A stretch of 64,000 bases of DNA from an uncultured delta proteobacterium (GTDB lineage Bacteria; Desulfobacterota; Binatia; UBA9968). Each line of letters opens with the position of its first letter. Position 1 is the stretch's first letter. Positions 28,069-41,365 of the stretch are shown in pieces. The stretch covers positions 128,001-192,000 of the forward strand of contig CAWJZV010000048.1 of assembly GCA_963847445.1 (NCBI GenBank). Direction: 5' to 3'. A model generated the notes under the pieces. That model was not told where the DNA came from, ran no database searches, and saw nothing but the letters and a program-made list of their open reading frames with translations. A program made the translations under genes and the position numbers.

Positions 28069-29949
28069 CTACAGATTCGGGCAGCTCAACCGAGGTTCTA
28101 CGGATTGGCGTGAAAGGCGGGCTCGCAGCCGCCGCTTGAGATCCTCGCCGACGCCTGGGTCGCGCGCTGAAATATCGACGAGCTCTTGTGGGTCGCCCGC
28201 CAAATCGTAAAGTAACGCTTCGCCGCTCTGGCAAGCGGCGATCAATTTATACTTGTCCCACCATATCGCAATCTTAGTTGGCAAGTAATGAACGATACCA
28301 TCGTATGGATATCGGTAATTGATTGCGACAACATCCGTTGGCGCCGGAACAGCGCCAAATTTGAGCGACTGTCCGTCCATCCAGTGCGGATTGGCAATGC
28401 CCACAACATTGAGAACCGTCGGCGCGATATCGAAGGACTGGGTTAGCCCCGCAACCCGTTCGCCCTTTTTCTGTCCGGGGTAGCGAATCAGCAATGGCAC
28501 CCGGGTGGAATTCTCAGACAAATCTTCACCATGCAAAAAATAGCCGCGTTCGAAGGACTCGCCGTGATCGGCAGTAAGGATCGCTAACGTGTTGTTGACG
28601 CTTGCCGTCGCTTCAAGAAACTTTCCCAGCTCCGCGTCCAGAGCTTTAATGGTCATTTCATAGAAACCCCGATAGGCGTCGACCGCCGGCTGAAACACTG
28701 GAGCGTATGGCGCGGAGAGCGCCAGTTGGCTGCCATCGACACGAACGGGAGCTGGCTCAAATCCCACAGGAATTTGATAAGGCCAATGCGGTTCCTGAAT
28801 ATGAACAAACAGAAAAAAAGGTGGGGGTAAACGCGCGATCAGATTCTTCACACGCGTCATCGTCTCGCTGATGTTACCTTCCATCGAAGCACGTCTTGGA
28901 AAAGCGAGAAGTGGGAAAATCCCCGCAAGATCTCCATACATGCGCCCACTGAAGCGGGTCGGATAGACACCAACATCGGTTAACCAGGAGAACAGGTTAA
29001 AGCCGAAGGCCATCTCTTCAGAGATATGCAATCCCGACCTCAAGCTCTGCAAGACCTCCGAGGCATCGCCGTTACTAGTCACGGCACCGATTGAGTACCC
29101 GTGGGCGCTCAAAAGGCTCAACAAGTTAAGTGGTTCAGGGCGTGGCGGGAATAATTCGCGATTCATTCTGCCATGGCTCAACGGGTGTCTGCCGGTCAAT
29201 AGCGTTAGCACACTCGTCATTGTCGTGGTGGCATTTGCATGCATCGCCAAATACGTACTGCTCGACTCGGCAAAGCGATCGATCGACGGTGTGGTCTTGT
29301 CCGTGTGCCCATACAGCGACATGCTCTGCGCTCTCAGCGAGTCGGCCACGATCAGGATCACATTGGCCCGATCCGCCGGCACCGCCGCGTTAGCAGCCGC
29401 CGCCGCAGGTTTATTCGCGCGGGCGGTCTCAATAATTCTCACGCTCACCGCTATAACCGTGGCGATCAACACCGGTACGACGACGCAAGAAAACATGTCT
29501 TGCCAACTTGGAATAATGTCCGTAGCGGGGGTGGGACTGATTTTCCGGCGCCTACGCAAGGCAAGGTACAGTGGGAAAATCACCAACAAGAGCAGCAATC
29601 CCACTGCTTTAGTGTTTGCCGGGTCGAGCTGCCAATTATCGAGCCAGCGCTTGAGAAAATAGCCGCTCGCAATGAAACAAGCGGATCGGCAAAGTGATTC
29701 ATTGACGCGGCGAACCACCGAAGCCTGCCAGCACAGACCGCCGAGGGTGACGACTCCGGCAAGCACCCCGATCCAAACAACTAAGGTCCAAAGCAGCGGC
29801 ACGCCACTGGTGAAACGGTCAAAAAAAGTCTCGTGACCGCTGCCGTAGACCGCTTGAAACTCAAGCGCCCAAAGGTAAACCACGAAACACAACCACGGTC
29901 GTAGGATGAGTCCGAATTGGCAATTCAAGGTGCGGGCGCCACCTAGCAT
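28069..29949 (-). CDS. Membrane-anchored sulfatase-like hydrolase/transferase (alkaline phosphatase superfamily)
   Basis: About 4-5 N-terminal TMs; NVILIVADSLRA, TMTSVLTLLTG, HIQEPHWPY, ILTADHGE, LYDLAGDPQE. Confidence 0.85.
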   Translation of the reverse strand: MLGGARTLNCQFGLILRPWLCFVVYLWALEFQAVYGSGHETFFDRFTSGVPLLWTLVVWIGVLAGVVTLGGLCWQASVVRRVNESLCRSACFIASGYFLKRWLDNWQLDPANTKAVGLLLLLVIFPLYLALRRRRKISPTPATDIIPSWQDMFSCVVVPVLIATVIAVSVRIIETARANKPAAAAANAAVPADRANVILIVADSLRAQSMSLYGHTDKTTPSIDRFAESSSTYLAMHANATTTMTSVLTLLTGRHPLSHGRMNRELFPPRPEPLNLLSLLSAHGYSIGAVTSNGDASEVLQSLRSGLHISEEMAFGFNLFSWLTDVGVYPTRFSGRMYGDLAGIFPLLAFPRRASMEGNISETMTRVKNLIARLPPPFFLFVHIQEPHWPYQIPVGFEPAPVRVDGSQLALSAPYAPVFQPAVDAYRGFYEMTIKALDAELGKFLEATASVNNTLAILTADHGESFERGYFLHGEDLSENSTRVPLLIRYPGQKKGERVAGLTQSFDIAPTVLNVVGIANPHWMDGQSLKFGAVPAPTDVVAINYRYPYDGIVHYLPTKIAIWWDKYKLIAACQSGEALLYDLAGDPQELVDISARDPGVGEDLKRRLRARLSRQSVEPRLSCPNL

Positions 29950-29983
29950 ATCGCTGGTCGATTATAAAATGAGATGAGACAAG

Positions 29984-30211
29984 TCAGGGATTCCTGCCAA
30001 ATATTTTAGCGAGGGACTGTCCAACCTTGACAACATATTGTTTGATGTAACGCAACCCATAGAAAAACACCGCTAGCGCGCCGTAGAACATGACGTAGAG
30101 AAGCTGCGAGATCAGGCCGCTGGTGCCTGGATCGACGTAAGCGAGTGCCTGGCTGGGAATGAACAATCCCAAAGTTACGACCACAAGAGTGCGGTGCTCT
30201 AGTCTCAACAT
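29984..30211 (-). CDS. Small membrane protein with an AYVDPG(T/S) motif
   Basis: Signal-like helix, AYVDPGTSG, a second TM and a basic tail; GGGAGG RBS before ATG 30211. Confidence 0.7.
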   Translation of the reverse strand: MLRLEHRTLVVVTLGLFIPSQALAYVDPGTSGLISQLLYVMFYGALAVFFYGLRYIKQYVVKVGQSLAKIFGRNP

Positions 30212-30358
30212 TTTTTTGCGCCTCCCAGGTGCCAAACCTCAGCGGCAATTATCGCCGCCTTGACTCTCAAAGACAAATTGTTTTCAAGATGGCCGTCGCG
30301 TCGACGACAAGCCGCCGTATGGTTGATCCGGTTACGGCTGCGCCGCTCACGCCACATG

Positions 30359-31783
30359 TCATTTTTCGCAAAGGAACAATTTGCGGTCAGGCGGAAACGA
30401 CGGATGGCACTGCACAGCCTTGAAGTGCCCTTTCAAGCAATTCTCCATATCCTCGACTGTGTAATCATCGAGACGCGGCACCACGCTGGCGCCGATCTTT
30501 GGCTTCAAAGCGGGGACAAACTCCAACAATAACCAACGCTCGCTCAGCGCCGCGAACAGCTCGCAAATACGCGACATCGGCAACCGTTGCAACGCTACCA
30601 CATGGTGCATCACTGCCAAACCCATGACCAGTTCACTCTTGAATCGCTCGATCGGCCCTGGGCAGGCTACACCGCCACGGCCAGGCGTGGCTACCGCGCT
30701 GAAAACATTGACCGCCAGCGGCAGGATATTCAGCCGATTTGCACGCGCCGTCTCATGACATAACGCCAACGCCGCAGTGTCGGCTTCGCATGCCGTCACA
30801 CGCGCGCCGTGCGCAGCGGCAAGAGCTGAATATCGCCCGGTGTTGGCCCCGACGTCGAGCACACTCTTGGGCCGTAAGTCAGTAAGAGTATTGCCGACCG
30901 CCTGGTATTTTGACTGCCAGTCGCCCGGCGACAAATCGGTCTGGAAGTATTGCTTGTCTGGGTTTCCATAGTAGCGCGCCCAATGACTGGTTCGATGTTT
31001 CAGCTCGAGGCTTTCAATACGCTTACGTAGTGCCGTGAAAAATTTAAGCTTGAGCCTTCCCTGTCCTGGTCCGCTGTTGGCCGCTTTGGAAATCGCCAGG
31101 AAACGTTGCTGCATCTCTTCCGGCAGATGCTCAAAGAGTTTGCTCACGGCTTTTGGGATTGCCACACCGAGGGTGCGTTGCGGGTGACGCAGCTTGAAGG
31201 ATGCCGGCAAGGCGGCGAGCAAGTCGCCATCGCTGACACCGGAGAGATAATCGCGCATCAGCCAACGCGCGATGTGATCCTGCCCTGCGGCATAGAGATA
31301 CAACGGATAGAGAAAAAAATTGCAGAACTGCTGATAGGGCGCCCACAGGATGTCGTCCCGCGCCGGAACGATCGAGCCGGCGTCGACATAGACGGGCCTC
31401 GTGCCTTCAAACAGAATGTTCCACGGATGACCGTCTTGAAGCGTCAGTCCTTGCTCGGCTAAGCGAATGCAAAGATCGATTGTTAGCAACGCTGCGTCCC
31501 GGAGCATGGCCGGCGGCCATTCATAGCAATAAGACTGCACCGCCACGCGGCGGTGACGCAGTACCGCCTTACCTGAGTCGGTCTTGAGTCCGCTCCACTC
31601 ACTCTCGATCAACAGCCCATCGCGCACCAGACCGTCAATCACGCCGCTCTTAGCCCATTGTTGCCAGCGCGCCGCATACACCGGATCAAGCGCGCGATAA
31701 AGCTCACCGCGCCATTCAAACAGCCGGCCATTGGGATCGACGAAGGACTCGCTCAGCCAGTGCTGTTCTGTGGCAGGTATCAT
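30359..31783 (-). CDS. NoeA-like protein: kinase-like N-terminal domain plus class I SAM methyltransferase
   Basis: SFVDPNG, SYCYEWP..MLRDAALLT, LQDGHPWNILF..YVDAGS, QFCNFFLYPL; VLDVGANTG SAM motif; LAVMHH. Confidence 0.8.
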   Translation of the reverse strand: MIPATEQHWLSESFVDPNGRLFEWRGELYRALDPVYAARWQQWAKSGVIDGLVRDGLLIESEWSGLKTDSGKAVLRHRRVAVQSYCYEWPPAMLRDAALLTIDLCIRLAEQGLTLQDGHPWNILFEGTRPVYVDAGSIVPARDDILWAPYQQFCNFFLYPLYLYAAGQDHIARWLMRDYLSGVSDGDLLAALPASFKLRHPQRTLGVAIPKAVSKLFEHLPEEMQQRFLAISKAANSGPGQGRLKLKFFTALRKRIESLELKHRTSHWARYYGNPDKQYFQTDLSPGDWQSKYQAVGNTLTDLRPKSVLDVGANTGRYSALAAAHGARVTACEADTAALALCHETARANRLNILPLAVNVFSAVATPGRGGVACPGPIERFKSELVMGLAVMHHVVALQRLPMSRICELFAALSERWLLLEFVPALKPKIGASVVPRLDDYTVEDMENCLKGHFKAVQCHPSFPPDRKLFLCEK

Positions 31784-32729: not shown

Positions 32730-35700
32730 ATGAACAACGGCAACTACACCGACACGCTCAAACAGCCGGGATTCTTTGCCTTTTTCTGCACCCAGTTCTT
32801 GGGGGCATTCAACGACAATTTTTTAAAGATCGTGGTCTCGTTCGTCGCCTTGAGCTTGGCCGGCCACGGCGGCGATTTTTACGTCGAACTGATCGCCATC
32901 CTGTTTATCCTGCCGTCGGCGCTGTTTTCCGGTTACGCCGGCCATCTCGCCGACGTCTACAGCAAGCGGACGATCCTGGTGGCGGTGAAGGCGATCGAGA
33001 TCGCCATCATGCTTTTCGCCTTGGCGTCATTTTACTTCGCCGATATCTGGCCCATGCTCGCGGCGGTTTTTCTAATGGGCTTGCACTCGGCCTTCTTCAG
33101 CCCGGCCAAGTACGGCATCTTGCCGGAGATGCTGCCGGACAAAGACCTTTCTCGCGGCAACGGCCTATTGGAGATGAGCACCTTCATGGCGATCATCCTG
33201 GGCACGTCGCTCGGCAGCGCGATCTTCTCGGTTTGGAAAAATCAACTGCCGCGCATCGGCTTCATCATGATCGCCATCGCCGTCGCCGGCTATTTTACCA
33301 GTCTCGGCATCGCCCGGGTGCCGGCATCGGGGGCGGCCAAGCTGCTCAACTTGAACCCCTTCGGCGAAATTACCGATGGCCTGCGCCGGCTGCGTCGGGA
33401 AAGGACGCTGTGGTTTACGGTCATCGGCATCTCTTACTTTTGGTTTCTCGGCGCGCTGGTCAATATCAACATTCTCTTCTTCGGCAAAGAGCTGTTGCAG
33501 CTCGATGAGTTTCACATCGGTCTGTTGGGGACTTTCTTGGCGATCGGCATCGGCATCGGCAGTCTCGCCGCCGGCAAACTTTCCGGCGATCACATCGAAT
33601 TGGGTTTAGTACCGCTCGGCTCGGTGGCGATGGGCTTTTGCCTTGCCCTGGTCGCCTGGGCGGCACCGTCCTATCCGCACACCGCACTTGCCTTGGTGCT
33701 GCTCGGCTTCGCCGCCGGCCTGTTCGCCGTGCCGCTCAACGCGCTGCTGCAACAGCGCAGCGGCAAAGAAGAAAAGGGCCAACTGATCGCGACCAATAAT
33801 TTCCTGAACACCATCGGCATCGCCCTGGCCGCGGCGTTGCACTGGTTTTTGAAAACCCCGCTGCAGCTTTCCCCCGATACCATCATCTTGCTGATCGGAC
33901 TCTTTACCTTGGCCGGCACGGTGGCGATCTTGTACCTGCTGCCCGATTATTTCGTCCGCTTCGTCGTCTGGCTGTTGACCAATACGCTTTATCGCATTCG
34001 TGTCGTCGGCGCGCAAAATATCCCGCTCCAGGGGCCGGCGCTATTGATCTGCAACCATGTCTCCTTCGTCGATGCGCTCTTGGTCGGCGCGCCGCAGCCG
34101 CGCTTCGTCCGCTTCATGCTGCACCGGGAGTATTACGATCTCAAATCGCTCAACTGGTTTTTCCGCCTCATGCACTCGATCCCGGTGTCGGCGAACAATC
34201 GGCGCGACATCGTCGCAGTCGCTCAAGCGGGCGAGAAACGAACTCGAAAACGGCCATGTGGTGTGCATCTTCGCCGAGGGCGCGATCAGCCGCACCGGCC
34301 GGCTGCTGCCGTTCAAGCGCGGCTTTGAGAAAATCGTCGAGGGCTCGAATATTCCGATCGTGCCGGTGCACTTGGACCAGCTCTGGGGCAGCATCTTTAG
34401 TTTCAAAGACGGCAAGTTCTTTTGGAAGTGGCCGTTGCAATTCCCCTACTCGGTCACGGTCTCGTTTGGCGCGCCGCTGCCGCCAACCTCCACCGTGGTG
34501 CAGGTGCGCAACGCCATCTTGGAGCTGGAAAGCGAGGCGGTGGAGTACCGCCGGCTTCCCGGCGATCTGCTCCACGCCAAGTTCGTCGAGATGGCCAAGC
34601 GCCACTGGTCGCGGTTCTGCATGGCCGACACCACCGGCACGGAGCTCACCTATGGCAAGGCGCTCATCGCCAGCCTGCTTTTTTGCCGCTGGCTGAGAAG
34701 CCATTGCGCCGGCCAGTCGATGATCGGCGTGATCCTGCCCGCCAGCGTCGGCGGCGCGCTGGTCAACATCGCCACTCTGCTAGCGGGCAAAGTGCCGGTA
34801 AATTTAAACTTCACCGGCGGCAAAGAAGCCATGGCCGCGGCGCTGGCCCAATGTAAGATCACCACCATCGTCACCTCGCGAACGTTTTTGGAGAAAGCCA
34901 ATCTCGAGAAAATGGACGGCATGGTTTTCGTCGAAGAGATCCGCCAGACGTTTACCGGCGCGCGCAAACTCGCCACCGCGGTCAAAGCCTATGTCACGCC
35001 GGCGCGTTGGCTCAACCGCCGCGCGCGCAAGCAACAGCGCCCCAACGATCTCGCCACGATCATATTTTCCAGCGGCAGCACCGGCACGCCCAAAGGCGTC
35101 ATGCTGTCGCACCACAACTTAATTTCCAACATCGAGGCGATCGGCCAGGTGATTCAGTTCACGCCGCAGGATCGCATCATGGGCATCCTGCCGTTGTTTC
35201 ACTCCTTCGGCTTCACCGCGACCATCTGGCTGCCGGTGCTGACCGGCTTCGGCGCGGTCTATCACCCCAATCCCACCGACGCCAAGACCATCGGCGAAAC
35301 CGTCGAGAAATACCGCGCGACATTGTTGATCAGCACGCCGACCTTCTACGTCAGCTACTGGCGCCGCTGCACCAAGGAACAGTTCGCCTCGCTGCGCTAC
35401 GTCATCGCCGGCGCGGAAAAGCTGCGCGAGCAGATCGCCAACGGTTACCAAGAAAAATTCGGCATCACCCTCCTCGAAGGCTACGGCTGCACGGAGCTCT
35501 CGCCGGTGGTCGCGGTCAACACACCCGATGTCGTCCACGACAAGGAAAAACAGACCGGCCACAAGCCCGGCACGGTCGGCCATCCGCTCCCCGGCGTCGC
35601 CGCCAAGGTGATCGATCCCGATAGCGGCGAGACCCTCGGCCCAGGCGAAGCAGGGCTGCTGCTCGTCAAAGGACCTAACGTCATGCTCGGCTACTTGAAT

Positions 35701-36171
35701 CAGCAGAACCTGACCGACCAAGCGATGCGCCACGGCTGGTATGTCACTGGCGATATCGCGACCATCGATGAGGACGGCTTCATCACCATCACCGACCGCC
35801 TGTCGCGCTTCAGCAAGATCGGCGGCGAGATGGTGCCGCATATGAAGATCGAAGAGATGATCAACGACGTCCTCGGCAGCCCGGCTTCGGTCGTCACGGC
35901 GATCCCGGACGAACAGCGCGGTGAGAGGTTGGTGGTTTTCTACGCCAAGAACGGCGTCCGCCGCGAAGAGCTGTGGGACCGGCTCAACAAATCCGCATTG
36001 CCCAAGCTGTGGGTTCCCAAGCGCGAAGATCTCCACGCCATCGACGAGATTCCCATCCTCGGCTCAGGCAAAGCCGATCTGAAAAGAGTCAAAGCGATGG
36101 CCTTGGAAAAAGCGATGCGCTTAGAATGGCCAGTCGAGCTTCAACCGCTGCCCAACCAGCATCGGAGGTGA
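32730..36171 (+). CDS. aas: LplT(MFS)-acyltransferase-acyl-ACP synthetase fusion (frameshift near 34216)
   Basis: TQFLGAFNDN and FSPAKYGILPE (LplT); NHVSFVD (HxxxxD) and FAEG (PlsC); FSSGSTGTPKG, EGYGCTE, TGD, RFSKIGGEMV (ANL adenylation). Confidence 0.92.
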
Positions 36172-36173
36172 CC

Positions 36174-38038
36174 ATGGTCGCCGCGCAACAGATCGTCAAA
36201 TACTTCGAGCGAGCCACCAAGGATTTCACCCAAGCCCGCGAATATCGCGACCTCGTCGGCGGCGGCGCGGGGATGGCGACCGCCTACGAGTTTTTGCGCA
36301 ATATCTTTCGCACCCATTATCTCTCGTCGCATATCGTCGCGCTGTGCTTCGCCTCGCTGCCATCGGCGGCCGCCGAGATGTTGAAAGAAAACCTGCTCGA
36401 AGAAATGGGCCGGTCGGAGGGCGAGCCGCCACATTCCGCGCTGCTCATGGAAATGGCTCGCGGTATCGGCTTCACTGACGACGAAGTCAATCAACTGATC
36501 GCCGATGCGCGCCGGCGCGTCGCGCTGGTCTGCGCCACCCGCGTGCCGGTGGCGACGTTGCGCGAGCTTTGTCTGTCGGTGCTGCTCGAAACCATGAGCT
36601 TCGAGTTCATGCTGTCGCGCTGTGCCAGCGAACTGGCCAGCGCGCTGAGCGATCAATATGCCATTCCGCGCTCCGCCCTGCGCTGGTTCGAGCTTCACTC
36701 CGAAGTCGATATCCGCCACGCCGAAGAAGCGATCACGGTGATCCAAGACTACAGCGAGTTTCATCAGATCTCCGACGCCCTGTTCGACCAGATCGCCGAA
36801 TTCACCCTCGGCGATCAGCTATTCTGTCGCCACTATTTTCCGCCGAGCTCGAAGCTGAAAACCCGCAGCAAAGCAGACCGGCCGGCGAGCATCGAGGCGC
36901 TGTCGATTTACCGCCTGCGCATTCCGTTTCACCAAGCGTTCAGCCATGCGCTGCACAGCCGCGAGGAAAGCGACGCCATCGTCGTCAAGGTCAGCGGCAG
37001 CGACGGCCGTAGCGGTTTCGGCGAAGGACTGGCGCGCGTCTATGTCACCGGCGAGACCACTGAATCGATGATCGCCCGCATCCGCGATTTCCTCGCGCCA
37101 AGGATTTTTCAGGAATCGTTTTCCCCAGGGTGGCAAACCATCGAGCAGTTGCAGTCGCTGCAGCCGGACTGGACGCGGAATTCGCAATCAAACAATGGCG
37201 TCATCGCCTGGAACGCGGCGTTTTGCGCCGTCGAGCTGGCACTGCTCGATTGGAGCCTGCGCGCCGACCATAGCGCGCTGGCGGACTATCTGCCGCCGGC
37301 GCGTTTCGAGGTCGTCTACAGCGGCGTGATCTCCGCCGACAGTCCGAAGGACGCGGCGGCGTTGGCCAAACGAATGGCGCGCTTGGGCCTAGCACAGATC
37401 AAAATCAAAGTCGGCACGCCGGGTGACGCCGCGCGCTTGGAAGCAGTGCGCAAAGCGGTGGGCAGCGCCGTCGAACTGCGCGCCGACGCCAACGGCGCCT
37501 GGAGCGCGGCGCAGGCAATTGAACAGTTGAAGCTGCTGGCGCCGTTTAAACTCGCCCTCATCGAACAGCCGGTGGCGGCTGACGATATCGCCGGCATGAA
37601 ACAAGTGCGCGCCCAATGCGGCATCCCGGTCATGGCCGACGAATCGCTGGTCACCATCGAACAGGCGCGCCGCTTGATCGCCGAAAAAGCCTGCGATCTG
37701 TTCAATATTCGGCTGTCGAAAAACGGCGGCATCTCCGGAAGTTTGGCGATCGCCAAGCTCGCCGAGGAGGCCGGAATCAAAATCCAAGTCGGCGCCCAAG
37801 TCGGCGAGACCGGCATCCTGTCGGCCGCCGGCAGAACCTTCGCCGCCCACATGTCGGAGCTTGCCTGCGCCGAAGGATCCTTCGGCACCTGGTTGCTGAG
37901 CGAAGACATTACCTACGACAACCTCGCCTTCGGCCTCGGCGGCCGCGCGCCGCTGCTGAAAAGCCGCGGCTTGAGCGTCACGGTCAAGAAGAAGCCCTCG
38001 AACGGCTCACCGTCGAGAAAATCGAATTGCGGCGTTAA
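36174..38038 (+). CDS. Fusion of a heme-oxygenase-like diiron (CADD/PqqC/TenA-type) domain and an MLE-subgroup enolase domain
   Basis: N-terminal: ENLLEEMG..PPH and WFELHSEVDIRH. C-terminal: GFGEG, IKIKVG, RADANG, IEQP, ADES, NIRLSKNGG. GGAGG RBS; the true stop is inferred at 38038 via one frameshift near 37988. Confidence 0.82.
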
Positions 38039-38042
38039 ACCC

Positions 38043-39727
38043 ATGAGCTTGATCGTCAAAGCGTCGGCTTTTGTCACCGGCCGTCTATGGAGTCGTTGGG
38101 AAAAATTGTGCGCCGATCCGGCAACGGTGCAAAACCGATTATTGCTCGACATCATTCAGCGCAACCGCGCCACCGCCTTCGGCAAGGATCATGGGTTCGC
38201 GGCCATTGCCAATTTAGCCGACTACCGCAAACAGGTCGCCATCGGCGACTACGAACGGCTACGCCCTTATGTCGAGCGCGCCGAGAACGGCGAAGCTCGG
38301 GTCTTGACCGAAGCGCCAGTGCGGATGTTCACCCTGACCAGCGGCAGCACCGGCGCGCCCAAGCTGATCCCAGTGACCGAGACCTCCCGCGCCAACCATC
38401 GCCAGCTCACTCGCCTGTGGTACCACCGAGCCAACCTCGATCATCCGGGCTTATTCAGCGGCAAGATGCTCGGCGTCGTCAGTCCAGCCCGAGAAGGGAA
38501 AACCGCCGGCAACATTCCCTTCGGTGCCGCCTCCGGCTTGATTTACCAGAGCAGCCCGCGCTGGATCCAGAACGCTTTCGTCCTGCCCTACGAGGTCGCC
38601 GAGGTGAAAGACTTCGCCGCTAAGTACTACCTGATCATGCGTGTGGCGTTGGCGCAGCCAATATCGTTTCTCGGCACGCCCAATCCGAGCACGATTCTGC
38701 GGCTGGTCGAAATCGCCGACAATAATAAATCTGAAATCATCCGCGACATTCGCGACGGCACCATCAGCGAGCGCTGGCCTATTCCCGGTGCGGTGCGGCA
38801 AAAGCTCGCAGCGCGCCTCGATAGAAGATCCCGCCCGCGCGGCCGAGCTCGAACGGCTGGCGAACCAATACGGCGCGCTGCGCCCCAAGGATTATTGGCC
38901 ACGAGCTGCAATTGATCGGTTGCTGGAAAGGCGGCACGGTCGGTGTGCGCTTGCATGAACTGCAGCGCTGGTTCGGCGAGTCCATGCCGGTGCGCGATTT
39001 AGGCTACATGGCGAGCGAAGCGCAGATGACCTTGCCGATATCCGACTCCGGCTCCGCCGGCATACTCGACGTCAGCGCCAATTTCTACGAATTCATTCCG
39101 GAGAGTGAAATCGCCAGCCGACAACCGGCAACTCTCACCTGCGCGGAACTCAAAGAAGGCGAAAGCTATTATTTGATCCTGACAACCCCCAGCGGCTTGT
39201 ACCGCTACGACATCAATGACGTGGTGCGCGTGGCGGGATTTTTTCAACAAACCCCGCTGCTTGAATTTGTCCGCAAGGGGCGCGATGTCACCAACATCAC
39301 CGGCGAGAAGCTCCACGTCAATCAACTCATCCAGGCGATGGCACAGGCGCAAATCGCAGCCAACATCGCGCCGCAACATTACCGCGGCTGCGCCGATGTC
39401 GACCGCTCGCGCTACGCCTTCATGGTCGAGTTCGACGGCGCCAATGCCAACGAAGCATCGCTCAAGCACTTGCTCGCCGCGCTGGAGCGAAACCTTTGTG
39501 AGCTCAATATCGAATACGCCCAGAAACGCGCATCGGAGCGTCTAAAGCCGCCGGTGCTTTGTGTGATGGAACCTGGCTGGTACGAACGTCATGCCAGCGC
39601 CGCACTGCGCAGCGGCGGCCGCGATACTCAATTCAAAGCCCAACTACTCAGTACGACGCCGGAAGCAGCCGGCGATATCACAGCCGTCATTGAACTCGCC
39701 GAACCCTCAAGCCACGGGAGCAAATAA
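38043..39727 (+). CDS. GH3 family acyl-adenylate/amide ligase (frameshifts near 38822 and 38905)
   Basis: TAFGKDHGF, DYERLRPYVER, LTSGSTGAPKLIP, GYMASE, FYEFIP, GLYRYDINDVV, GEKL. Confidence 0.9.
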
Positions 39728-39729
39728 AT

Positions 39730-40263
39730 ATGGCCAAGCACGGACCGCTCCTAGCCCTGATAACATTTTTGTTCGCCTGCCGGGTCTTGGGGCAAGCTCT
39801 GGTCGCTTTTGTCGGCGTATCCTGGTTACCAGCGATGGAACAATGGTTCTCCGGAGTGATTCCCTACCCCTCGCTGCTGCTCATCCAACTGCTCATGTTG
39901 ATGCTCATGGTGAGAATCACCGGCGAAGTCTGGCGCGGCACCGGCACCTTCGCCGTCGTGCGCCCCCACTGGGCCGAATTCCTGATGAAATTTGCCGGCG
40001 CCTACGCCGGACTGATGATCCTGCGCTATGCTCTGACGATGATTCTCCATCCCGAGATGCGCTGGTTCGGCGACATCATTCCAATTATTTTTCACTTCGT
40101 CTTGGCCGGGTTCATATTCGTTCTCGGCCACTATCACCAGGTGATGACCGACTATAAAAATATTCGCACAGTCTTCATCTGCGCTTGTCGAATCCAACGG
40201 ACGCCGATCAATGACTTACCGCGTAAACTGACTAGCATGCGGTTAAATTGCCGCGGAATTTAA
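39730..40263 (+). CDS. Small integral membrane protein (about 4 TM), unknown function
   Basis: Starts 2 nt after the GH3 stop; four hydrophobic helices; the 3' end is uncertain. Confidence 0.7.
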   Translation: MAKHGPLLALITFLFACRVLGQALVAFVGVSWLPAMEQWFSGVIPYPSLLLIQLLMLMLMVRITGEVWRGTGTFAVVRPHWAEFLMKFAGAYAGLMILRYALTMILHPEMRWFGDIIPIIFHFVLAGFIFVLGHYHQVMTDYKNIRTVFICACRIQRTPINDLPRKLTSMRLNCRGI

Positions 40264-40384: not shown

Positions 40385-41365
40385 ATGAATTTTCAGCAAC
40401 TGGCGGACAAAGCATTGCAAGGAATTCTACCCGAGCGGGAGGAATTGCGTGAAGTATTGAACGCACCGGACGAACAGCTACCGGAAATCTTGAGCGCCGC
40501 CTTCAAAGTGCGCCACCACTACTACGGCAAGCGCGTGCAGATCCATGTCTTGCAGAACGCCAAGAGCGGCCTGTGCCCGGAAGACTGCCACTACTGCTCG
40601 CAGTCGTCGGTCTCCGAAGCCCCCGTCGACAAGTACACTTTCATGTCCAAGGAAAAGCTGGTCGAAAGCGCGCGCCAGGCCAAAGCAGCCGGCGCCGTAC
40701 GCTTTTGTATCGTCAACAGCGGCCGCGGCCCGACCAACAAGGAAATTGACGACATCACCGAGGCGGTGCGCGAGATTCGCGCCCAGACCGGCATGAACGT
40801 CTGCTGCTCGTTGGGCTTGATGAATGACGACAAGACCCAGAAGCTCGCCGCCGCTGGCGTCGGCCGGGTCAATCATAATTTAAATACCAGCCGCGAACAC
40901 CACGCCGACATCGTCACCACCCACAGCTACGACGACCGGGTCGCGACGATTGAGAGCGTCAAGAGCGCCGGCATCGGCACCTGCTCCGGCGGCATCATCG
41001 GCATGGGTGAAAGCGATGACGACATCATCAACCTGGCGATGACGCTGCGTGCCATGGACATCGACTCGATCCCGGTGAATTTTTTGAACTCGATCCCCAA
41101 GACACCCTTCGAGGCGAAACGCGAACTGACGCCGCAACGCTGCTTGAAGACGCTGTGTTTGTTCCGCTTCGTCAATCCGACCAAAGAGATCCGCGTCGCC
41201 GGCGGCCGCGAAGTAAACTTGCGTTCGCTGCAGCCGCTAAGCCTTTACCCAGCCAACTCGATGTTCGTCAACGGCTACCTGACCACGCCCGGCCAAGACG
41301 CCACCGACGCGCACCAGATGATCCGCGATCTCGGTTTTGAGCTGGACCAGCCGGCAGCGATTTAG
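40385..41365 (+). CDS. bioB: Biotin synthase (radical SAM)
   Basis: NAKSGLCPEDCHYCSQS, NHNLNTS, CSGGIIGMGE, SIPVNFL, IRVAGGRE, ANSMFVNGYLTT; GGAGG RBS. Confidence 0.97.
   Translation: MNFQQLADKALQGILPEREELREVLNAPDEQLPEILSAAFKVRHHYYGKRVQIHVLQNAKSGLCPEDCHYCSQSSVSEAPVDKYTFMSKEKLVESARQAKAAGAVRFCIVNSGRGPTNKEIDDITEAVREIRAQTGMNVCCSLGLMNDDKTQKLAAAGVGRVNHNLNTSREHHADIVTTHSYDDRVATIESVKSAGIGTCSGGIIGMGESDDDIINLAMTLRAMDIDSIPVNFLNSIPKTPFEAKRELTPQRCLKTLCLFRFVNPTKEIRVAGGREVNLRSLQPLSLYPANSMFVNGYLTTPGQDATDAHQMIRDLGFELDQPAAI

Follow-up and report, generated by a model that had tools for sequence, protein, structure and literature searches.

We examined a window of 64,000 nucleotides (positions 128,001 to 192,000 of contig CAWJZV010000048.1) from the assembly of an uncultured bacterium of the class Binatia (GCA_963847445.1; 7.2 Mb in 48 contigs). 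Its central region holds, in plus-strand order, an aas-type fusion gene, a gene in which a heme-oxygenase-like dimetal oxidase (HDO) domain is fused to an enolase-superfamily domain (HDO::enolase), a GH3 acyl-acid amido synthetase gene and a hydrophobic open reading frame (ORF), flanked by a divergent pgeF and by bioB. An earlier reading of the letters alone, the original prediction, had named these four co-oriented genes and proposed that they form one lipid or acyl-amide operon; domain matches for the aas, HDO::enolase and GH3 products support the identities it gave, and the hydrophobic ORF is present. The conserved unit is smaller, consisting of HDO::enolase, GH3 and a small membrane protein with four transmembrane segments, and the best explanation of the locus is that in one Binatia lineage this cassette has become lodged between aas and bioB, which are resident genes.

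As printed in the window, aas and GH3 are each split, and the HDO::enolase frame reads on into GH3. Alignment against six relatives places six single-base indels in the region (near 34215, 36117, 37988, 38827, 38904 and 40153), and an open frame is kept at every one of these places in short-read contigs from DNA runs of other studies (X5, X7 and X8; two to three of the three runs per place). Because relatives and outside contigs alike keep the frame open, the alignments identify the six indels as assembly errors in the window, and a pseudogene or a programmed frameshift is ruled out, as both sources read through all six. The first error splits aas and the second falsely lengthens it to 36171, where the corrected gene ends near 36124; the third masks the true stop of the fusion gene at 38036-38038; the next two fall within GH3; and the last, near 40153, displaces the end of the membrane gene, which the original prediction had placed at 40263 and which becomes ~40157 (142 aa) on correction. 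Intergenic gaps of 2, 4 and 2 nt had been proposed. The fusion-GH3 gap of 4 nt stands (4-6 nt in 6/6 intact relatives), as does the GH3-membrane gap of 2 nt, likewise 2 nt in the intact relative L053, while the aas-fusion gap (36171/36174) is really ~49 nt and measures 38-59 nt, with a ribosome-binding site, in nine relatives. Translational coupling of aas to the fusion is accordingly an artefact of the indel near 36117. Corrected features are collected in Table 1.

Table 1. Features of the cassette and its flanks in window coordinates, after correction of assembly errors
Feature	Position	Strand	Basis or remark
aas-type fusion (LplT-like MFS + PlsC acyltransferase + acyl-ACP synthetase, ~1130 aa)	32730..36124	+	PRK08633 model matched in two halves
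Ribosome-binding site of the HDO::enolase gene	36164..36168	+	seen in 9 relatives printed
HDO domain (heme-oxygenase-like dimetal)	36174..36845	+	Haem_oxygenas_2, E 1e-15
MLE-subgroup enolase-superfamily domain, same protein as HDO	36888..38038	+	MR_MLE, E 3e-49
GH3 acyl-acid amido synthetase	38043..39727	+	GH3 N, M and C domains; 551-562 aa in intact relatives
Small membrane protein, ~142 aa, 3-4 hydrophobic segments	39730..40157	+	unnamed family
bioB	40385..41365	+	flanking gene, outside the cassette; original neighbour of aas

Scans for promoter-like sites (3 against 2.9 expected) and terminator-like sites (15 against 10.9 +/- 3.1 expected) were uninformative, and Rfam gave no match in the window. 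One metatranscriptome contained contigs at 90-95% identity over parts of aas, the fusion and bioB; these derive from a relative and tell nothing of expression level or co-transcription. Upstream of pgeF, on the minus strand (28069-31783), lie a membrane-anchored sulfatase-like gene and a 474-aa methyltransferase-like gene, a variable feature found in 5/20 regions.

The cassette and its resident neighbours

We mapped 47 HDO-type loci in genomes and metagenomes (L053 and L054 counted once; some may belong to the same species, and not all are independent). GH3 lies directly 3' of the enolase in 42/42 loci whose contig continues, and the membrane gene accompanies the cassette in differing gene orders, being found within 2 kb in 30 of the 37 decidable loci, whether upstream, downstream or on the opposite strand. 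Fusion matches at more than 50% identity, full or partial, occur in 20/30 genomes of the genus (among them G015, a deletion remnant), and the enolase is patchily distributed across the family (29/90 genomes). Outside the family, unfused HDO, enolase and GH3 genes occur together in G328, G508, G888 and G891 (three from another order of the class, plus G508), and the fused arrangement reappears in 2/301 genomes of a second phylum (that of a Dehalococcoidia record), where the enolase family gave six matches, two HDO-type and four lipase-type, with no hydroxylase-type cassette among them. A tblastn search of plasmids returned only distant enolases (best 32% identity) and eight distant GH3s. The membrane protein has no Pfam or NCBIfam match and its atlas clusters are unnamed; two fusions involving it were seen among 1233 candidates, both with GH3 domains, and these weak cases are probably read-throughs.

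Several loci depart from the common arrangement. In L109 (654-4870) unfused HDO, enolase and GH3 genes are followed by an ICMT/PEMT-family membrane methyltransferase where the small membrane gene would be. A gene for an S15/CocE-family hydrolase, a possible acyl supplier, sits within or beside the cassettes of L219 (5443-7206) and L082 (8445-10259), and three genomes of a single family (L201, L219 and L220) have, next to the cassette, a gene for a regulator with helix-turn-helix (HTH) and TPR domains. An internal deletion in L222/L225 (G015:C2, ~673000-674000) joins an HDO fragment to the C-terminal half of GH3 and leaves aas, the membrane gene and bioB in place.

The aas product has the MFS (LplT), PlsC and AMP-binding architecture of PRK08633-type lysophospholipid repair fusions (intact at 1111-1133 aa in nine relatives), and its two window halves score 487 and 890 bits against a whole-model cut-off of 1221. 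Nothing about it is unusual, and it behaves as a flanking resident gene: aas is present in 73/90 family genomes, mostly without the cassette, and lies directly upstream in 29 of the 43 decidable HDO-type loci and not directly upstream in the other 14. In two cassette-less genomes with no GH3 match (G006 and G023) aas is ~170-240 bp from bioB; in L064 the pair is intact with the cassette 4.3 kb away; in five further genomes of that genus (g191) and in G399 the two genes are on separate contigs; and in G015 the middle part of the cassette is gone while aas is retained. Because aas and bioB adjoin without the cassette and the G015 deletion spares aas, the pair looks like a landing site, and we regard aas as a resident housekeeping neighbour and an accessory partner at most. 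The idea of a four-gene unit therefore survives for HDO::enolase, GH3 and the membrane gene, which are conserved far beyond this genome, and fails for Aas as a dedicated member, given its distribution (73/90 against 29/90 for the enolase) and its adjacency to bioB. A link to biotin synthesis through bioB was considered and rejected: the order aas-bioB is also found where the cassette is absent, some cassettes lack bioB, and bioD lies on a different contig.

Active sites of the three enzymes

The predicted oxidase-enolase fusion is genuine: 115 of the 120 homologues among the matches listed are 620-623 aa long. All six candidate metal ligands of the HDO domain (E77 or E76, H87, E144, H175, D179 and H182) are invariant in these 120 fusions and in 30/30 rows of a wider HDO alignment, and H48, S51 and E139 are likewise invariant in 120/120 of the fusions listed. 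A fold search with the whole fusion returned the enolase part only, and the HDO domain was therefore folded alone. The resulting model (pLDDT 90.6) superimposes on CADD with Z = 18.0 and a root-mean-square deviation of 3.0 over 204 residues, followed by HrmI (Z = 17.7) and FlcD (Z = 16.2), at 16-17% identity, and Foldseek agrees. The domain thus combines the seven-helix (alpha-7) fold with the three-histidine, three-carboxylate ligand set defined for HDOs (PMC13108848), as do CADD, HrmI, FlcD, UndA, SznF and BesC, and model and alignment together predict a two-metal, O2-activating oxidase. It differs from these relatives in its low identity to any solved member (at most 18%) and in its fusion to an enolase. 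About a dozen HDOs have been characterised, and most act on fatty or amino acids (PMC13108848). The same invariant pocket residues are found in stand-alone HDOs (P0343-P0392, 33-40% identity, one from Pyrinomonadaceae), and a second, distant HDO-like gene (24% identity) lies elsewhere in the genome (G000:C26:30266-30748).

The closeness to CADD bears on a non-lipid pathway, in which GH3 would ligate an aromatic or dicarboxylic acid (compare plant GH3.12), an elimination or lactonisation like those of o-succinylbenzoate synthase (OSBS) or MLE would follow, and the HDO would supply the acid, even by CADD-like self-sacrifice. CADD is the nearest HDO structure, with HrmI practically tied; Tyr24 aligns with CADD Tyr27, the substrate tyrosine of this p-aminobenzoate synthase (PMC9522330), and is Tyr in 117/120 of the fusions listed; and the conserved capping-domain arginines of the enolase, R263 and R288, would suit a second anionic group. 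Against this, the Tyr27 position is Tyr in only 5/30 wider HDO rows, the CADD Lys152 position is I, L, V or M in 120/120 of the fusions listed, and the positions of the relay tyrosines Tyr43 and Tyr141 are occupied by Phe. The CADD model TIGR04305 gives 30 bits against a cut-off of 200, no folate genes flank the loci mapped, and it is lipid enzymes that repeatedly accompany the enolase family. We consider a non-lipid pathway quite improbable, and a CADD-type p-aminobenzoate synthase or folate role in particular is mostly rejected, since Lys152, the relay tyrosines, gene context and model cut-off all fail. A search of G000 for pabB gave split matches only, below cut-off.

For GH3, the Pfam domains GH3, GH3_M and GH3_C all score over cut-off, and the three nucleotide-binding motifs, as defined in PMC12493201, are intact both in a 16-row GH3 alignment and in the alignment to JAR1, marking the protein as a predicted ATP-dependent amide-forming ligase. 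Structural matches were to plant GH3s only (10/10), and the match to plant amido synthetases (JAR1, GH3.12/PBS3) is full-length (~530 positions, E 1e-54 to 1e-46); unlike these, the cassette enzyme is bacterial and operon-encoded. The original prediction had called bacterial GH3 functions largely unknown, a view now out of date: OlsH (2025), a GH3 from Singulisphaera acidiphila, makes N-acyl-ornithine by acylating ornithine from free fatty acid with ATP and Mg2+, in a pathway where OlsI, an alpha/beta-hydrolase, serves as O-acyltransferase (PMC12493201), and a Legionella cluster with a GH3 has been proposed to attach a modified ornithine (PMC5640695). In both the OlsH/OlsI pathway (with OlsG) and the cassette, a bacterial GH3 carrying the three motifs is encoded in one operon with enzymes that tailor lipids, and the pairing of GH3 with an alpha/beta-hydrolase recurs in the wider enolase family. 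The cassette differs in having neither OlsG nor an alpha/beta-hydrolase O-acyltransferase, with an S15-family hydrolase in two HDO-type loci, in lacking a methyltransferase, and in the added HDO::enolase fusion; in the available text of the OlsH paper the words "enolase" and "racemase" do not occur (PMC12493201).

Fold and catalytic residues place the enolase domain in the MLE subgroup: it carries the beta-2 K410-x-K412 base and the metal ligands D438, E464 and D489, and its fold matches that of 1JPM (Foldseek E = 6e-19). In an alignment of the query with 150 library representatives and 106 ORFs from the loci (257 rows), K412 is kept in 255 rows and each metal ligand in 256. Where the four best PDB matches, which are epimerases and racemases, have their beta-6 lysine, the cassette enolase has Arg513; Arg occupies this position in 252/257 rows, against Lys in two, and in at least 147 clusters at 50% identity, a count that is partly circular (the ranking profile held the Arg) and that leaves 4 of the 151 representative rows without it. 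The patterns used to search metagenomes did not contain the Arg. In racemases and epimerases the beta-6 lysine is the second acid/base, whereas it is only a stabilising cation in OSBS and MLE; a second-shell lysine, here K516 (254/257 rows), has been linked to racemase activity, yet is present in most MLEs (bioRxiv 2022.03.03.481873, PMC12006748). Because Arg replaces the beta-6 lysine, the enolase lacks the catalytic pair of the two-base enzymes (NSAR/NAAAR and dipeptide epimerase), and we infer a one-base reaction, whether elimination, addition or isomerisation.

The enolase thus has the fold, the KxK base and the D/E/D metal ligands of the MLE-subgroup epimerases and racemases (20-31% identity in the Foldseek rows listed), and departs from them in its Arg, its lipid gene contexts and its own signature residues (H258, R263, R288, Y290, Y382, E545 and E567). 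H258, R288, Y382, K412, R513 and E545 are invariant in 89/89 labelled rows. The position of E567 is Glu in 251/257 rows; the DxD motif of dipeptide epimerases lies at the end of beta-8, probably the place where the cassette enolase has E567-G-S, and the printed PDB alignments end before this strand. The domain falls below the cut-off of all 19 NCBIfam models that it matched, including the muconate cycloisomerase and OSBS models (TIGR02534, 137 against 335 bits; TIGR01928, 107 against 201), and no men or cat cluster recurs among neighbours of the loci mapped.

These residues and the aas distribution together bear on a four-gene pathway in which Aas would supply or re-acylate the lipid, its PlsC domain acting as O-acyltransferase in the manner of OlsA/OlsI, and the enolase would racemise the head group to the D-form. 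The placement of aas directly upstream in 29/43 loci, and close to the cassette in differing arrangements in L201 and L082, speaks for it, as do the racemase and epimerase identity of the closest PDB relatives, the O-acyltransferase use of OlsI in a GH3 aminolipid pathway (PMC12493201) and the failure of the lipase partner described below ever to co-occur with Aas (0/80, in the best 80 of 559 metagenome matches). The abundance of aas in genomes that mostly lack the cassette, its adjacency to bioB in G006, G023 and L064, its survival of the G015 deletion, the collapse of the 2-nt coupling into an assembly error and the Arg at beta-6 all speak against it, and we judge it improbable; the D-configured product that had been predicted as possible, which would call for a racemase or epimerase, is not what the active site indicates.

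Partners of the enolase across its family

In a midpoint-rooted FastTree phylogeny, built from rows that have a partner and exceed 320 residues and not showing the direction of change, a branch with support 99 separates 26 HDO-associated enolases from the rest; a quick tree excluded rows below 300 residues and partner-less rows with less than 700 bp of flank. We surveyed genes up to 4.5 kb from the enolase in the best 80 of 559 metagenome matches, and found a Hydrolase_4 lipase with intact GxSxG in 40 loci, GH3 in 26, HDO in 16 and Aas in 12; lipase and HDO were never found together (0/80). Where at least 2 kb was available on both sides (33 of these 80), 26 loci have one of lipase, GH3 or Aas. 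Three of the seven proteins scanned are lipase::enolase fusions, and two genomes of the same taxonomic order combine GH3 and the enolase with an OlsE-like hydroxylase (180 bits against a cut-off of 475). The use of free fatty acid by OlsH would, by analogy, explain the lipase partner. The predicted lipid connection is supported by neighbours elsewhere, which are lipid enzymes. One genome of the family (G033) has two lipase-enolase-GH3 loci (L047 and L048), one of them with two lipases and a patatin.

A further type was found in 18 of 250 other genomes of the phylum: of 18 loci with the enolase, 16 have an LpxL-like acyltransferase, 11 have FadL and 13 encode a cytoplasmic sensor; in L175-L189 and L191, from other classes of the phylum, FadL is convergent. 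The sensor keeps a ~250-aa N-terminal V4R-like domain, with a Ser-Cys-x-Asn motif invariant in 13/13, and a GAF domain, while its outputs vary (HisKA_3, HisKA, HisKA_2 and HD). The likeness to V4R should be taken as no more than a lead, with atlas scores of 0.81-0.87 and a Pfam match (E = 2e-4) for one of three sensors scanned. Together the set looks like a synthase, importer and receptor for a fatty-acyl signal.

Such loci speak for a fatty-acid signal of the jasmonate or diffusible signal factor (DSF) kind, in which a lipase or oxidase would free a hydroxylated or otherwise oxidised fatty acid, the enolase would dehydrate or isomerise it, and conjugation by GH3, where there is one, would switch the signal on or off. 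The retention of the sensor input domain under varying outputs, the cNMP-binding genes and Ser/Thr kinases that flank several lipase-GH3 loci and the match of the GH3 profile to JAR1 (E = 1e-54) fit this as well. The sensor-linked enolases, however, form a separate subclade, neither such a sensor domain nor a close lipase was found in G000, and the V4R likeness carries the caution given above; for the Binatia cassette we think a signal of this kind unlikely.

Another alternative is detoxification or salvage, the cassette conjugating and disposing of oxidised or foreign fatty acids freed in membrane repair. The family-wide neighbours would suit it (lysophospholipase-like hydrolases, patatin, HAD phosphatase with lipid kinase, FadL and Aas/LplT), as would the patchy distribution in 29/90 family genomes, but the fusion of HDO to the enolase and the tight coupling to an ATP-consuming ligase look biosynthetic, and neither beta-oxidation nor amidase genes are recurrent among the mapped loci, leaving this explanation very improbable. 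In L102, L115, L125, L129 and L142, five of the 80 metagenome loci, the enolase is followed by the HAD phosphatase and a YegS-like lipid kinase, with no lipase or GH3; it is speculation that the kinase could activate a hydroxyl for elimination. Across all these contexts, the simplest reading is that the enolase reaction is conserved and its substrate acylated or fatty, and that the partners that acylate and oxidise can be exchanged for one another.

A candidate pathway and its meaning

We consider it an even call that the cassette makes an oxidised, then eliminated N-acyl amino acid, with the membrane protein handling the product and Aas dispensable; each step is drawn from family chemistry and gene context. 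GH3 would adenylate a fatty acid, or less probably another free carboxylic acid, and join it to an amino acid. The HDO domain would activate O2 at its two-metal centre and oxidise either the amino acid or its acyl conjugate, a step that is probably a hydroxylation or a desaturation. In the least certain step, the enolase would bind a free carboxylate on Mg2+ and Lys412 would take the alpha-proton; with no lysine opposite, the outcome would be a one-base reaction such as beta-elimination, giving an N-acyl-dehydroamino acid or an enoate, rather than racemisation. If this pathway is correct, dehydration to a dehydroamino-acid or enoyl product and some other one-base step seem to us about equally probable. 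The membrane protein probably handles or exports the product, and Aas may supply or recycle acyl chains without being required.

Several observations weigh against this pathway. Its argument from the enolase leans on an Arg count that is partly circular, every one of the nearest relatives of the enolase, in structure and in sequence, is an epimerase or a racemase (the closest being dipeptide epimerases and N-succinyl-Arg/Lys racemase), and another residue could act as second base. Cassette-clade GH3s score 82-110 bits on the OlsH model NF052613 (cut-off 620; the 110 is that of L053, an intact close relative), so that, to judge from sequence, the cassette GH3 is at best an enzyme that works like OlsH and not an OlsH orthologue; it scores 189 bits against plant JAR1, and a small hormone-like acid is a possible substrate. 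The same enolase active site is found in the LpxL-like type, where 0/10 near-complete genomes gave a GH3 match, and beside a lipase alone in 27 loci, and therefore GH3 need not be the source of the enolase substrate. Of 37 HDO-type loci, 7 lack the membrane gene. Finally, aas lies ~2 kb (within 2.2 kb) from the cassette in other gene orders in L201, from another family, and in L082, a hint that its linkage is not purely accidental.

A broader possibility, which we also hold to be unlikely, is that the Arg-beta-6 enolase family is the core of undescribed fatty-acyl signal or lipid pathways with swappable parts in several phyla, and that the Binatia cassette is the bacterial counterpart of jasmonoyl-isoleucine synthesis. 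If this were true, acylation would fall to GH3 (lipase-fed) or an LpxL-like transferase and oxidation to HDO or an OlsE-like hydroxylase, one branch would have attached a FadL importer and a dedicated V4R-like cytoplasmic receptor, and both a new HDO reaction and a new enolase-superfamily reaction on a lipid would be expected.

We know of no MLE-subgroup enzyme that acts on a membrane lipid or an acyl signal. In line with the prediction that no described pathway has this combination, a literature search, with few subscription papers and no supplements in its reach, gave no description of a GH3 with this enolase or HDO, and OlsH was the one biochemically defined bacterial GH3 that it found. The cassette is best seen as a variation on GH3-dependent N-acyl amino acid pathways that holds two uncharacterised enzyme families, and thus as a testable pathway gap rather than, as yet, a surprise in mechanism. 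Its three small genes hold an uncharacterised HDO, bacterial GH3 and MLE-subgroup member, of which intact copies exist, and the cassette could yield a new HDO reaction, a new enolase family assignment and a lipoamino acid of an uncultured lineage.

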